This document shows, piece by piece, positions 52,844 to 64,000 of a stretch of DNA of 64,000 nt. Source of the DNA: Deltaproteobacteria bacterium RBG_16_49_23. Its GTDB lineage: Bacteria > Desulfobacterota > BSN033 > UBA1163. Numbering within the stretch: the stretch's first letter is position 1; each line of letters opens with the position of its first letter. The stretch is taken from NCBI GenBank assembly GCA_001798855.1, contig MGQQ01000104.1, forward strand, positions 1,093 through 65,092, given 5' to 3'. A program made the translations under genes and the position numbers. Below the pieces are notes generated by a model. The model searched no databases and was not told the origin of the DNA. It saw nothing but the letters and a program-made list of their open reading frames with translations.

Positions 52844-52920
52844 CGGGGCGTAGCGCAGCCTGGTAGCGCACTGGCATGGGGTGTCAGGTGTCGGAGGTTC
52901 AAATCCTCTCGCCCCGACCA
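52844..52920 (+). tRNA. tRNA-Pro (anticodon GGG)
   Basis: Manual fold: acceptor cggggcg/cgccccg, D-stem gcgc/gcgc, anticodon stem ctggc/gtcag with loop atGGGgt (G37), T-arm ggagg-ttcaaat-cctct, 3' ACCA. Confidence 0.8.
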
Positions 52921-53245
52921 ATTTTTTTAAATTCCTTCCTTAATTAAAATCTAAATTGAGCGATTCTTTTTGAAATACCCTGTAGCCGCAGGCTTCAGCC
53001 TGCGTTTTCAAATCACCCATCGGGTGATTTGTAGGGCAAGACTTCAGCCTGAGAAAGCGTTTCGTGTCCACTATTGACACCGGGGGTCAACTTGAAATGA
53101 GAAAGAACCGAAAATGATATGCGATAGGGCGGCATGGATAGAGTGCCACTCTGTTAAGATGATAGGGAAACCGGTGGAGGTTGTTGCCGGGTATTCCCAA
53201 TCAAAAGAGGGGTGAGCTTATTAGCCTCACTCATCGGAGATTTAA

Positions 53246-53608
53246 ATGGGGATGACTCTGCTTAAAAATGAAAAGGATGCCCTTACAGACCTCAAGGAAG
53301 AGATATCAAAGAAATATAAATTGCTCTGGATGAAACTTATTGGCTCTAAAGCAAGAGGAGACTTTGATGAAGAATCAGATATTGATATTGTAATTGCCCT
53401 TGAAAATACTGACTGGGATATTGAAAGGGATATATTCGAAACATGTTTTTATTTAGGTTTAAAATACGACATCGTTATTTCACCAATCATTTATTCTGAG
53501 AAAGATATCAATGATACATTCACTCTAATAACCCCATTTTACAGAACAGTTGAGTCAGAGGGCATCCTGATATCAAGCCCAAATCCCGATTTAGAAATTT
53601 CAAAATAG
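53246..53608 (+). CDS. Nucleotidyltransferase-domain protein (MNT-type), orphan
   Basis: GSKARGDFDEESDIDIVI motif. No HEPN partner gene downstream. AT-richer than the core genes. Confidence 0.65.
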   Translation: MGMTLLKNEKDALTDLKEEISKKYKLLWMKLIGSKARGDFDEESDIDIVIALENTDWDIERDIFETCFYLGLKYDIVISPIIYSEKDINDTFTLITPFYRTVESEGILISSPNPDLEISK

Positions 53609-53609
53609 T

Positions 53610-53722
53610 TCCCTCTCCCTTGACGGGAGAGGGTTAGGGTGAGGGTGAGGGTGAGGGTGAATAGTTCACCTTTAAGGTTACCCCTCCCCCTCGCCCCCTC
53701 CCGCAAGGGGAGGGGGATTTAC
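53610..53722. repeat. Repeat family A element with (gtgaggg)n run
   Basis: ccctctcccttgacgggagagggttagggtgagggtgagggtgagggtgaa...cccctccccctcgccccctcccgcaaggggagggggattt. Confidence 0.7.
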
Positions 53723-53803
53723 CTGAAAAACAATTTTCTACCTCTGTTTTAGGGTGAAGGAAGAGATCAAGGCGCTCATTGAATATAGGCTTCAAGAATT
53801 TAA

Positions 53804-60935: not shown

Positions 60936-60943
60936 GGTCACGT

Positions 60944-61669
60944 ATGAAAGCGGTCATTTTAGCAGGAGGCAAGGGTACACGCCTTCGGCCTTATACGACG
61001 GTCATCCCTAAACCTCTCCTACCTGTTGGGAACTACCCCATTTTGGAGATTATCCTGAAACAGCTCAGAGGATTTGGCGTTCATGAGGTTGTTCTGGCAG
61101 TCGGCCATATGGCACAGTTGTTTCAAGCTTTTTTCCAGGATGGTCAACGATATGGACTGAAGATCCGCTACTCTCTGGAGACAAAATCATTGGGCACAGC
61201 CGGTCCGCTTTCGTTGTTGATGGATGAAATGAAAGAGGATTTCCTCGTAATGAACGGTGACTTGCTGACAACCCTGAACTTTCGCCGGATGTTTGAGTAC
61301 CACTGCCACCAAGGGGCGGCAGCAACCATTGGACTCTACCAGCGTGAAGTAAAGATAGATTTCGGCGTGGTGGAGACGAACCATGATAACCGATTGAGTA
61401 AATACACTGAAAAACCGGTGTTTAAATTTAGCGTAAGCATGGGGGTGAATGTCTTGAACCCAAAGGTGGTACGCCCCTACTTGATTCCCGGAAGGTTTCT
61501 TGACTTACCTGACCTGATGGTTCATCTTCGAGACGACGGATATCCAGTATACTGTTACAGCGAGCCCTGTTTCTGGCTGGACATCGGCCGGGAAGATGAT
61601 TACCAAAAAGCTAATGAGATTTTTGAATCCCATATGAATGAGTTTATCTCTGATGGAAGCCTGCCGTGA
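60944..61669 (+). CDS. Sugar-phosphate nucleotidyltransferase
   Basis: MKAVILAGGKGTRLRP...KPLLPV motif. Confidence 0.85.
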   Translation: MKAVILAGGKGTRLRPYTTVIPKPLLPVGNYPILEIILKQLRGFGVHEVVLAVGHMAQLFQAFFQDGQRYGLKIRYSLETKSLGTAGPLSLLMDEMKEDFLVMNGDLLTTLNFRRMFEYHCHQGAAATIGLYQREVKIDFGVVETNHDNRLSKYTEKPVFKFSVSMGVNVLNPKVVRPYLIPGRFLDLPDLMVHLRDDGYPVYCYSEPCFWLDIGREDDYQKANEIFESHMNEFISDGSLP

Positions 61670-62595
61670 ACGTATTAGTAACGGGCGCCAGCGGATTCAG
61701 TGGTACACATCTGCTTCGCTTGCTGCAGAGTGAGAGGGTAAATATTTTTACCCATGGCCCGGTGAAAGGGATCCTGGGCAGACATTTTGATACCCCTGTA
61801 CATGATCTCCATGCTTTAGTCGACGTTGTCCGTCATGCGCAGCCTGATTATGTTTTCCATTTGGCCGGAATTGCCAGTGGGGAGAATTATTCGGATTTTT
61901 ATTCAGTCAATACTCTGTATGCAGCTAATCTTTTGCGGGCGCTGGAGATCGCAGGGTGGCAGGACTCTCCAGTGCTGCTCGTTGGCAGCGCAGCGGAGTA
62001 TGGAGTAATTCAATGTGACGAATTGCCTATAACTGAAGAGACGCCAGCGCGCCCATATAGCCATTACGGTGTGAGCAAACTGGCGCAGACTCAACTGGGG
62101 CTGACACTGTCACGGAGTGGTCGCAAACTGGTCATGACACGCCCTTTCAACATTATTGGATGTGGGATGGGCGATCATCTTTCGGTGAAGAGTTTTGCCC
62201 TTCAGGTGGCCGCGATCATCGTCAAGAAACGTCCCCCGGTGATCCGGGTGGGTAATCTTTCGAGTTCCAGAGACTTTGTGGACGTAAAAGAAACTGTCAA
62301 AATCTATTGGCAGCTGATCCAGACGCCAGCTGCACATTGCCAGGTGATAAACATCTGTTCGGGAAAACAAATCATCATGAAGGAACTGCTGCATAAGCTA
62401 ATAGAGTTCTCTGGCATGGCTATTGAAATCCGGGAGGACCCGAGTCGCTTCAAGCCCATTGATGTCCCTTCTCATTACGGTAGCCCTGAGAAACTGCGCT
62501 CAATCTTAGGCCTAACTCCCGTAAAAAACGTTAATGATACCTTAAAAGAGATTTTGGATGAATTAATAATCTCTATGCAGAAAGACCGCGTATAG
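61666..62595 (+). CDS. NAD-dependent epimerase/dehydratase/reductase (SDR family)
   Basis: VLVTGASGFSGTH Rossmann motif and YGVSK catalytic motif. Confidence 0.8.
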   Translation: MNVLVTGASGFSGTHLLRLLQSERVNIFTHGPVKGILGRHFDTPVHDLHALVDVVRHAQPDYVFHLAGIASGENYSDFYSVNTLYAANLLRALEIAGWQDSPVLLVGSAAEYGVIQCDELPITEETPARPYSHYGVSKLAQTQLGLTLSRSGRKLVMTRPFNIIGCGMGDHLSVKSFALQVAAIIVKKRPPVIRVGNLSSSRDFVDVKETVKIYWQLIQTPAAHCQVINICSGKQIIMKELLHKLIEFSGMAIEIREDPSRFKPIDVPSHYGSPEKLRSILGLTPVKNVNDTLKEILDELIISMQKDRV

Positions 62596-62616
62596 AATAC
62601 CCTTTTAGGACCATAC

Positions 62617-64000
62617 GTGAAATTCGCCGATTTCTTGACAGACCGAATCATTTTACAGAATGGTCAACGCCAGGCCGATCCCCGTGTAAGTATCATCATG
62701 CCGACTTACTGTCGAAACGCTGAGGGGTTGCTCCGGCCATGCATCGAATCGGTGCTGGCACAGACGTTCAAAGATTTTGAGTTTATTATTGTGGATGATG
62801 GTTCCACCGACGGCTCGGAAGAAGTTATCCGAGGATATATGGAACGGGAACCACGGATCGTTTACGTGCGCCATTCCATGAATTGTGGCCTCCCTGCGTT
62901 ACGGACGGATGAAGGAATTTTGCTGGCGAGAGGACCGTACGTTGGCTTTATCTTCGATGACAATACATGGAAGGCTGACGCGCTGGAACAGATGGTTAGA
63001 GGAATCGAGGCAAGCGGGGCGGACATTGTTTATGGCAATGCCATCCTGGCGCAGGGAGGTGGGGAGAATCGAATCTTTGGCAATCTGCCGCTGACAGTTG
63101 AACTCCTGCAAAACTTCAACACTATTTTAAACGCAGCAGTGCTTTGCCGGCAGAAGTTCTTTGAGCATTATGGCTTGTACGACCCCCATTTGCTCATCCG
63201 GCGCATTTGCGACTGGGATCTTTGGCTTCGGGCCCTGAAGGGGGGGGCAAACGTTCAGCACATTGATCACGTATTGAGCATCGAACATGGCCTGGTTTCG
63301 AAGTCTTCACTCGGCAATACGGTCAAGTGGGATTATAAGGCAAGCGTAGCCTACATTCAGGATGAAACACGGCTTGATGAACGCACGGCTGCCTTGCGAC
63401 CCGGAAATATTCTTACTTACGATGTCTTTGATCCTGAACGGGCGTTGCCTTATGTACGCGACTTTAAGGAATGGGACGCCATTGAGGCGGCCGTTTACAG
63501 ACCCTATCTGGACACGCATTGCCAGGTACGGTTTGAGCACCTGATCCGTGATAACCGCCGCCATGACCCGGAATTGTATGGTTATTCGCTCAATGCAGAA
63601 AATCCCATCTTCCGCGATCGCAAACGTATACTCCTAGTGGCAAACCGCTACGAACGAGTTGTTCAAGACTGGTGGAAGGCACTGTCACAGGATAGGAACC
63701 ATATTGTGATGAGTTGCAATGAGATGGGGGTATCGTCTTTTAACCCGGCAGATGTAGATTGGGTCATCCTTTTTGACTGCACGGCAGAGATGCTGGTCCG
63801 GTTTTCCCGGCAGTGTGCCGAAACGGGTGTACCCGTGACTTATATGGTACTGCACGGAATGGATAGAGTTTTCACCAGTCCAAATAACCCATTACGAGGT
63901 TTGGATCTAATGCATAATGAGACTGTGCGCAACTATCTTGGCACAGAAGTTTATTTATCTCATCCGGAAACACCCTGGCCTGACAGGCTGCGGTCAGGAG
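62617..64000 (+). CDS. Family 2 glycosyltransferase, N-terminal domain, with an additional C-terminal region. Partial: it continues past the window end.
   Basis: The open frame from 62596 reads VSIIMPTYCRNAEG...IIVDDGSTDGS, a GT2 signature. There is no stop before 64000. The start is probably GTG 62617 or TTG 62635. Confidence 0.7.
   Translation, partial: MKFADFLTDRIILQNGQRQADPRVSIIMPTYCRNAEGLLRPCIESVLAQTFKDFEFIIVDDGSTDGSEEVIRGYMEREPRIVYVRHSMNCGLPALRTDEGILLARGPYVGFIFDDNTWKADALEQMVRGIEASGADIVYGNAILAQGGGENRIFGNLPLTVELLQNFNTILNAAVLCRQKFFEHYGLYDPHLLIRRICDWDLWLRALKGGANVQHIDHVLSIEHGLVSKSSLGNTVKWDYKASVAYIQDETRLDERTAALRPGNILTYDVFDPERALPYVRDFKEWDAIEAAVYRPYLDTHCQVRFEHLIRDNRRHDPELYGYSLNAENPIFRDRKRILLVANRYERVVQDWWKALSQDRNHIVMSCNEMGVSSFNPADVDWVILFDCTAEMLVRFSRQCAETGVPVTYMVLHGMDRVFTSPNNPLRGLDLMHNETVRNYLGTEVYLSHPETPWPDRLRSG

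Follow-up and report, generated by a model that had tools for sequence, protein, structure and literature searches.

A probable horizontally acquired glycan-biosynthesis island with decayed debris at the tRNA-Pro 3' end of a Syntrophorhabdus-like genome

Introduction

Does the DNA that follows the tRNA-Pro(GGG) gene in a Syntrophorhabdus-like genome belong with the conserved genes that precede it, or has it been acquired from elsewhere? The question is raised by a 64,000-nucleotide stretch of contig MGQQ01000104.1, the whole of which is here called the window, taken from a metagenome-assembled genome (MAG) of a Syntrophorhabdus-like member of the Thermodesulfobacteriota. Between the tRNA gene and the end of this window lies a cluster of glycan-biosynthesis genes, including the Wzm and Wzt genes of an ATP-binding cassette (ABC) transporter, and between the tRNA gene and this cluster lie the remains of a toxin-antitoxin (TA) module, which pairs a minimal nucleotidyltransferase (MNT) with a HEPN protein, together with an internal piece of another Wzt gene. 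Genomic islands that are associated with tRNA genes and carry surface-polysaccharide clusters are an established class, and an original prediction made from the DNA letters had proposed horizontal acquisition at the tRNA with subsequent cassette replacement, to be given up if the composition equalled the genome average and the cluster were syntenic in the relatives. The analysis reported here leads us to conclude, with good confidence, that an island of glycan-biosynthesis genes, at least 11 kb in length, was acquired horizontally at the 3' end of tRNA-Pro, and that its proximal 1.3 kb consists of decayed debris. As such, the locus is an ordinary tRNA-associated genomic island, and represents neither a new mechanism nor a new class of system.

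Results

Gene order and base composition around tRNA-Pro

The conserved part of the window ends with the order thrS-infC-rpmI-rplT-pheS-pheT-HU-MerR-YbjQ-like, after which comes the gene that marks the junction, the only one to attain its gathering score in an Rfam scan of 50-64 kb:

52844-52920, + strand: tRNA-Pro(GGG), called by ARAGORN and scoring 56 bits in Rfam

Relatives were collected by searching the C-terminus of PheT against one genome per species, which returned nine Syntrophorhabdus-like/Thermodesulfobacteriota MAG loci, 65-83% identical over the segment. Seven of these (L002, L004-L008 and L010) have usable DNA 3' of tRNA-Pro, and an eighth (L009) carries the tRNA gene with only 0.4 kb past it. 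All eight share a 100% identical tRNA, full-length PheT is 74-86% identical to that of the seven, and the upstream core proteins are syntenic in the relatives, with identities of 74-94%. In every one of the seven, a block of surE-fbp-fba-miaB begins about 20 nt after the tRNA; its genes (surE, fructose-1,6-bisphosphatase, class II aldolase and miaB) were identified by reading the sequences, and none of the four is found within the 64-kb window. Conversely, none of the 12 genes that follow the tRNA in the window is present in the fetched loci of the seven relatives. Indeed, in the multiple alignment the similarity between the window and the relatives stops no more than about 7 nt past the CCA of tRNA-Pro. 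The break in homology at the tRNA 3' end, together with surE in seven out of seven relatives, indicates that the cluster is an insertion and not a syntenic core locus.

The base composition changes at the same place. Within the 64-kb window, to which all these comparisons refer, the content of guanine plus cytosine (GC) is 0.497 for positions 1-52843, 0.427 for 52921-57000 and 0.484 for 57001-64000, and the minimum of a 4-kb sliding window over the entire 64 kb begins at 52751, thus spanning approximately 52.75-56.8 kb. Also, GC at third codon positions (GC3) amounts to 0.508±0.031 in the 11 genes of the cluster, against 0.599±0.051 in 31 upstream genes (Mann-Whitney, p=1.9e-5). The MNT gene is extreme in composition (GC 0.34, GC3 0.32), and the cluster itself is something of a mosaic, the first four intact genes having a GC of 0.43-0.48, mostly below the 0.45-0.51 of the later ones. 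Clearly, the shift towards A/T is real, being strong over the first 4 kb past tRNA-Pro and mild beyond. The visible shift after the tRNA that had been noted from the sequence is thus borne out by both the sliding window and the GC3 test, and of the two observations that were to speak against an island, an average composition and synteny in the relatives, neither was made.

The glycan cluster

Gene families were called with Pfam and NCBIfam, and selected proteins were compared with the PDB. Exact-protein look-ups with three of the window's proteins returned only one 5-kb contig from the same sample (L001), which covers 58.1-63.2 kb and is identical to the window except for an N scaffold gap. 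The intact genes downstream of the debris are:

54223-55185, + strand: glycosyltransferase of family 2 (GT2), 320 aa; Pfam Glycos_transf_2, 2.4e-30, no NCBIfam equivalog reached
55189-55956, + strand: GT2 glycosyltransferase, 255 aa; Pfam Glycos_transf_2, 7e-28
56033-56836, + strand: Wzm, ABC-2 permease; Pfam ABC2_membrane
56855-57598, + strand: Wzt ATPase, 247 aa, nucleotide-binding domain (NBD) only; Pfam ABC_tran
57665-58801, + strand: DegT sugar aminotransferase, dependent on pyridoxal phosphate; Pfam DegT_DnrJ_EryC1, 1e-78
58803-59327, + strand: GNAT N-acetyltransferase; Pfam Acetyltransf_3
59425-59847, + strand: putative lipoprotein, 140 aa; signal peptide with lipobox LLPSC, start codon backed by the gene call on L001
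59946-60935, + strand: short-chain dehydrogenase/reductase (SDR), LegB-like nucleoside-diphosphate (NDP)-sugar 4,6-dehydratase; NCBIfam TIGR04180, 439.5 bits, just under the cut-off of 475
60929-61669, + strand: sugar-1-phosphate nucleotidyltransferase; Pfam NTP_transferase, 1e-38
61666-62595, + strand: second SDR, epimerase or reductase; Pfam Epimerase and GDP_Man_Dehyd
62617-64000, + strand: GT2 fusion protein, 461 aa visible, cut by the window end; Pfam GT2 over residues 25-155 only

This inventory agrees with the genes originally listed (two GT2 enzymes, Wzm, Wzt, DegT, GNAT, two SDRs, a nucleotidyltransferase and a GT2 fusion), to which the putative lipoprotein, absent from that list and without a match to any Pfam or NCBIfam family, is now added. 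The start of the nucleotidyltransferase is likely at 60944, and its best NCBIfam model, below cut-off, is mannose-1-phosphate guanylyltransferase. The adjacent Wzm and Wzt genes resemble galactan exporters: Wzm has as its best NCBIfam model the galactan export permease Wzm/RfbD (181 bits, under the cut-off of 380), and the resident Wzt, which is devoid of a C-terminal carbohydrate-binding domain, scores 242 bits with galactan_ABC_ATP (cut-off 400) and has mycobacterial RfbE (9qfx, 1.3e-59) as its best PDB match. DegT is similar to PseC and ArnB, below both NCBIfam cut-offs, with TlmJ and ArnB as PDB matches; GNAT scores 62 bits with PseH (cut-off 93) and matches SpeG-like proteins and FdhC in the PDB, and the PDB matches of the LegB-like SDR are dTDP-glucose 4,6-dehydratases.

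The GT2 fusion has homologs of about 700-730 aa, and its best match among 5.8 billion proteins (P0001, 729 aa) is 43% identical; in metagenome contigs nothing above 48% identity was found. A Rossmann-like alpha/beta segment follows the GT2 domain, and AlphaFold models P0001 confidently over residues 1-300, moderately well over 335-410, where this segment lies, and poorly beyond 441. The C-terminal profile search that had been suggested finds with Pfam no domain past GT2 in the visible part; one homolog (P0008) carries a weak Glycos_transf_1 match of 26.8 bits, and this one protein suggests that the second domain may be GT-B/GT4-like. For Wzm, the best full-length representative is 52% identical and one partial representative 77%, in a search of 50%-identity cluster representatives, behind which closer relatives may hide. 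The lack of orthologs at host-like identity (43% for the GT2 fusion and 52% for Wzm, compared with 74-94% for the core proteins) supports an acquired origin of the cluster.

As to the product, the comparisons of DegT, GNAT and the first SDR with the PDB fit a sequence of 4,6-dehydratase, 4-aminotransferase and N-acyltransferase. The nucleotidyltransferase, the LegB-like dehydratase, DegT and GNAT would together make an NDP-4-acetamido-4,6-dideoxyhexose or, if N-acetylhexosamine-1-phosphate is the starting sugar, a 2,4-diacetamido-trideoxyhexose, and the second SDR would supply another modified sugar. The three GT2-type enzymes could then work at the cytoplasmic face, assembling the chain on a lipid carrier, and Wzm/Wzt, as predicted from their family membership, would export the finished chain. 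The N-acetylated amino-deoxy-sugar proposed for the polymer is thus a fair prediction from the DegT and GNAT families and these PDB comparisons. The early steps recall those of legionaminic acid (LegB/LegC/LegH), bacillosamine and pseudaminic acid (PseB/PseC/PseH) biosynthesis, which likewise use a LegB-like 4,6-dehydratase (439 bits here), a DegT aminotransferase and a PseH-like GNAT. Here, however, all scores are below the equivalog cut-offs, and in contrast to the legionaminic and pseudaminic pathways there is no nonulosonic acid synthase, hydrolysing epimerase or CMP-transferase; judged from these families, the product appears more likely to be an amino hexose, di- or tri-deoxy, that serves directly as donor than a nonulosonic acid.

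In its architecture the cluster follows the Wzm/Wzt pathway for O-polysaccharides and galactans, in that an ABC-2 permease and an NBD-only Wzt stand beside cytoplasmic GT2 enzymes (three in all) and nucleotide-sugar genes, and no Wzx, Wzy or ligase is found among the visible open reading frames (ORFs) of the cluster. The mycobacterial Wzm-Wzt (RfbD/RfbE, PDB 9qfx) is the closest solved transporter to the resident pair, but the NCBIfam scores remain below cut-off and the host is here a diderm member of the Thermodesulfobacteriota. Elements of the known pathway that are not seen here are an initiating enzyme, a chain terminator and a carbohydrate-binding domain on Wzt. The original prediction had considered the pathway complete: the genes are indeed those of ABC-transporter-dependent glycan synthesis, but completeness is more than the window shows, as the last gene is cut and 52.9-64 kb contains no initiating phosphoglycosyltransferase of the WecA or WbaP type, which may lie beyond or elsewhere, as is commonly so.

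The tRNA-side edge

Between the tRNA gene and the first intact gene of the cluster lie the following features:

52921-53245, no strand: junction spacer, non-coding, with two perfect hairpins; no family in a six-frame Pfam scan
53246-53608, + strand: MNT minimal nucleotidyltransferase, antitoxin half of a HEPN-MNT pair; Pfam NTP_transf_2 and Polbeta
53577-53754, + strand: 178-bp bipartite GC-rich hairpin repeat insertion, resembling miniature inverted-repeat transposable elements (MITE) or repetitive extragenic palindromes (REP), at the overlap of MNT stop and HEPN start
53755-53798, + strand: 5' stub of a HEPN gene, about 15 codons (VKEEIKALIEYRLQE), matching the opening 44 nt of the HEPN gene of locus L106 at 97.7%
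53804-53929, + strand: internal fragment of a canonical Wzt/TagH-type ABC ATPase, 42 codons, approximately residues 89-130 (translation LGAGFHPDLTGRENILINGVLLGLTKDEILEKMEEIIAFSEV)
53930-54222, no strand: AT-rich spacer, GC 0.39, with no family match in any frame, preceding the first intact gene of the cluster

HEPN-MNT modules (HepT/MntA, type VII) are a known toxin-antitoxin system (PMC7641770, PMC2701414, PMC3710099). In agreement with this, the MNT of the window retains an intact GSX10DXD motif (GSKARGDFDEESDID), and on the contigs of its close homologs, which are typically 109 aa long, a HEPN gene follows with a 4-nt overlap or a 27-nt gap; the associated HEPN belongs to PF05168, and not to DUF86/HepT as in type VII, and in the window the toxin gene is truncated. 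The anatomy of this truncation is evident from two homologous loci, L106 and L107, which are 98% identical in DNA to positions 53227-53576 and lie in a different sequence context. In these, an intact HEPN gene overlaps the MNT stop by 4 nt, and the next 44 nt (the HEPN start, MKEEIKALIEYRLQE...) match window positions 53755-53798 at 97.7%. The 178-bp repeat, of which the homologous MNT-HEPN loci L106 and L108 are free, separates the two genes in the window, and its insertion has given MNT a foreign tail, the last 11 codons (53577-53608) being read from the repeat. Homology to HEPN ends at 53798, and the Wzt fragment starts five nucleotides further on. Cut to 15 codons and separated from MNT by the repeat, HEPN can no longer form a working TA pair with it. 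When 52921-54222 is scanned with Pfam in six frames, MNT is detected and no HEPN, integrase or other family, the HEPN stub being apparent only through DNA comparison with the homologous loci. The MNT that had been described as an orphan does lack an intact HEPN partner, but a 44-nt stub of the latter remains, the pair having been broken by repeat insertion and deletion.

MNT-HEPN homologs are observed within polysaccharide loci elsewhere, namely at L100 3424-4641, with Poly_export-Wzz upstream, and at L108 1-5587, with rmlACBD and a NusG paralog upstream; in L100 the N-terminus of HEPN looks scrambled too. Such modules may be repeatedly associated with variable glycan loci, a link for which a literature search on HEPN/MNT modules in polysaccharide loci found no report.

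The Wzt fragment is bounded by stop codons, has no start codon, Walker A, signature motif or Walker B, and is a pseudogene fragment. It is a genuine piece of Wzt, as had been recognized, although not over the 157 bp (53804-53960) first assigned to it: no convincing similarity extends past 53929, leaving only about 126 bp. In a phmmer search of PDB Wzt proteins it matches residues 89-130 of Aquifex Wzt (E=7e-8, approximately 55% identity by hand count), and canonical Wzt gene fragments from the protein database share 60-79% identity with it; the word-indexed search returned short, fragmentary Wzt calls on unrelated contigs, which inform on the lineage of the fragment and not on its origin. With the resident Wzt it shares 40% of the protein sequence and 52% of the DNA, and third codon positions match in 11 out of 40 cases, which is the random level. 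A protein identity this low, third positions at random and a closer canonical Wzt together indicate that the fragment stems from a different Wzt lineage and is not a duplicate. The original view of it as a decayed paralog of the wzt gene at 56855 is therefore not tenable, canonical Wzt proteins being 55-79% identical to it. No Wzt was found beside MNT-HEPN in the homolog loci examined.

The repeat inserted at 53577-53754 has the layout CCCTCYCCCTTGACGGGRGAGGG-TTAGGGTGAGGGTGA ... CCCCTCCCGCAAGGGGAGGGG and is one of a family, of which four further copies, comprising both hairpins or the first, occur on the + strand at 24525, 38966, 39943 and 51798, and a weaker match on the - strand at 6997. Relatives carry copies at other sites (L005:1207, L007:361 and L010:4134), and these differing positions suggest a mobile MITE/REP-like element typical of the lineage. 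The copies measure about 100-180 nt and nearly all have one orientation; no Rfam family was recognized in the repeat, which gave only sub-threshold miRNA-like matches. One may speculate that this repeat, with at least five copies in 64 kb, is an undescribed and still-mobile MITE-like element, that its insertion at the MNT/HEPN overlap disarmed the toxin, and that the orphan MNT, left catalytically intact, was kept as an anti-addiction immunity factor against incoming HEPN toxins; we regard this combined proposal as rather unlikely.

Three short elements of the edge are to be mentioned. Directly past the tRNA, at 52988-53031, stands the hairpin GCAGGCttcaGCCTGC followed by TTTT, which is terminator-like, and then the hairpin CAAATCACCCatcGGGTGATTTG, whose stem is 10 bp long; both are missing from the relatives at the matching position. 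At 53975-53990 the sequence TCGGTTCAAATCTCTTT resembles the T-arm of tRNA-Pro, with an exact match of the 10-mer GGTTCAAATC at about 53977, which is at chance level (approximately 1.4 expected, as an estimate). This site is located at the boundary between debris and cluster, a position that would suit a degenerate attachment (att) repeat.

Discussion

Horizontal acquisition at a tRNA, as had been proposed, is supported by the synteny with seven relatives and by the composition. The ancestral order would have been the core block up to tRNA-Pro(GGG) followed directly by surE-fbp-fba-miaB, and at least 11 kb of foreign DNA would have entered at the tRNA 3' end in the source genome. As for the debris, the lineage repeat may have been inserted at the overlap of the MNT and HEPN genes in a first step, and a subsequent deletion may have taken HEPN from codon 15 on and left the stub fused to 42 codons from the interior of a canonical wzt; whether this decay took place at the present site or before arrival, either course would fit the anatomy observed. 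The locus shares with tRNA-associated genomic islands the insertion at a tRNA 3' end, the absence from relatives, the deviant composition and the strain-specific glycan genes, as well as mobile debris, here a TA module and a MITE-like repeat. Unlike in these, neither an integrase nor a flanking direct repeat is visible in this window.

This difference is among several points that weigh against acquisition. No integrase or transposase is found in the window, either among ORFs of at least 110 aa or when 52921-54222 is scanned with Pfam in six frames, and a second copy of the tRNA-Pro 3' end, allowing up to 3 mismatches in 25 nt, is absent from the window, the far boundary of the island lying past 64000. 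The distal part, 57-64 kb, is only mildly AT-shifted (0.484, compared with 0.497 upstream of the tRNA), and the partial Wzm at 77% identity indicates that related transporters exist somewhere. The relatives that were compared are other species or genera, with no same-species strain among them, and, as the source is a metagenome assembly, the tRNA junction is known from the assembly alone. Also, neither an initiating glycosyltransferase nor a ligase is in sight from which to tell the final acceptor of the glycan.

The dependence on one assembly is most relevant to a reading in which a false join at the conserved tRNA-Pro gene, 77 nt long, produced the contig, so that 52.9-64 kb would derive from another organism of the same reactor metagenome. 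The homology break falls exactly on a sequence with 100% conservation among the relatives, the composition changes at tRNA-Pro, and the only other assembly, L001, stems from the same sample and covers 58.1-63.2 kb but not the junction. However, the repeat at 53577-53754 is of the same family as the core copies at 38966, 39943 and 51798 and those of the relatives: located 0.7 kb past the tRNA, it provides at least the first 0.9 kb with a lineage marker, and the presence of its family in both the core part of the window and the relatives ties the junction to the lineage's own genome. Moreover, an identical tRNA-Pro would point to a close relative as the most likely donor, and in close relatives it is surE that occupies this place. 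Such a chimera appears to us very improbable, and scarcely more probable is a native locus exposed by rearrangement, in which an inversion or translocation at tRNA-Pro moved surE-fbp-fba-miaB away and no horizontal acquisition took place. The latter would account for the absence of an integrase and of an att repeat from the window and for the distal half of the cluster being near host GC, but not for a GC3 that is significantly lower with all 11 cluster genes, nor for identities of at most 43% (GT2 fusion) and 52% (full-length Wzm) where core proteins reach 74-94% with the relatives, nor for the mobile debris at the tRNA-side edge, which includes a TA module with a 98% identical counterpart in another sequence context.

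Within the acquisition reading, which we retain, the history of the debris raises a further alternative, namely that an earlier cassette with a canonical wzt and MNT-HEPN resided at tRNA-Pro and was overwritten in situ by the present one. The cassette replacement originally proposed finds some agreement in the Wzt fragment, which is of a different lineage than the resident Wzt, in the MNT-HEPN homologs that lie within polysaccharide loci (L100 and L108), and in a GC that is mostly lower over the first four intact genes than over the later ones and so suggests a mosaic. On the other hand, the site is empty in all seven relatives, which offer no alternative cassettes, and the debris may have come in already decayed, as nothing in the window dates these events relative to the integration. 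Replacement in situ is in our view possible but doubtful, although far less remote than a mis-joined contig or a rearrangement.

The locus documents a strain-specific surface-glycan island in the Syntrophorhabdus-like Thermodesulfobacteriota, a syntrophic lineage that has been little studied, here from an anammox-type reactor, and predicts, from the gene families present, a glycan with an N-acetylated amino-deoxy-hexose for the source organism. It also constitutes an example, resolved to the base, of a TA module and a transporter gene decaying at an island edge through a repeat insertion and a deletion that fused unrelated fragments. In annotation, 53.58-54.22 kb is to be treated as pseudogene debris.

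Further observations in the window

Just 5' of tRNA-Pro, at 52752-52830, there is an inverted repeat with 31-nt arms built of tandem octamers, five of TGGAATNA and four of NATTCCAN. Its right arm (ATTCCA repeats) is kept in all relatives, and L002 has additional GGAAT repeats further upstream; the element could function as an array for regulation or protein binding, or as the terminator of ybjQ.

In the core part of the window, a few genes in 37932-39905 and 288-2860 have a low GC3 (0.49-0.53) and may represent further small acquired segments; one such low-GC3 ORF, at 38961-39905, has a copy of the hairpin repeat on either side. The ORF of PheT as listed (48049-50637) is extended at its N-terminus by about 73 codons without a match in the relatives, whose homology begins at residue 74, apart from a match of 23 residues in another frame, and the true start of PheT is probably further downstream than listed.

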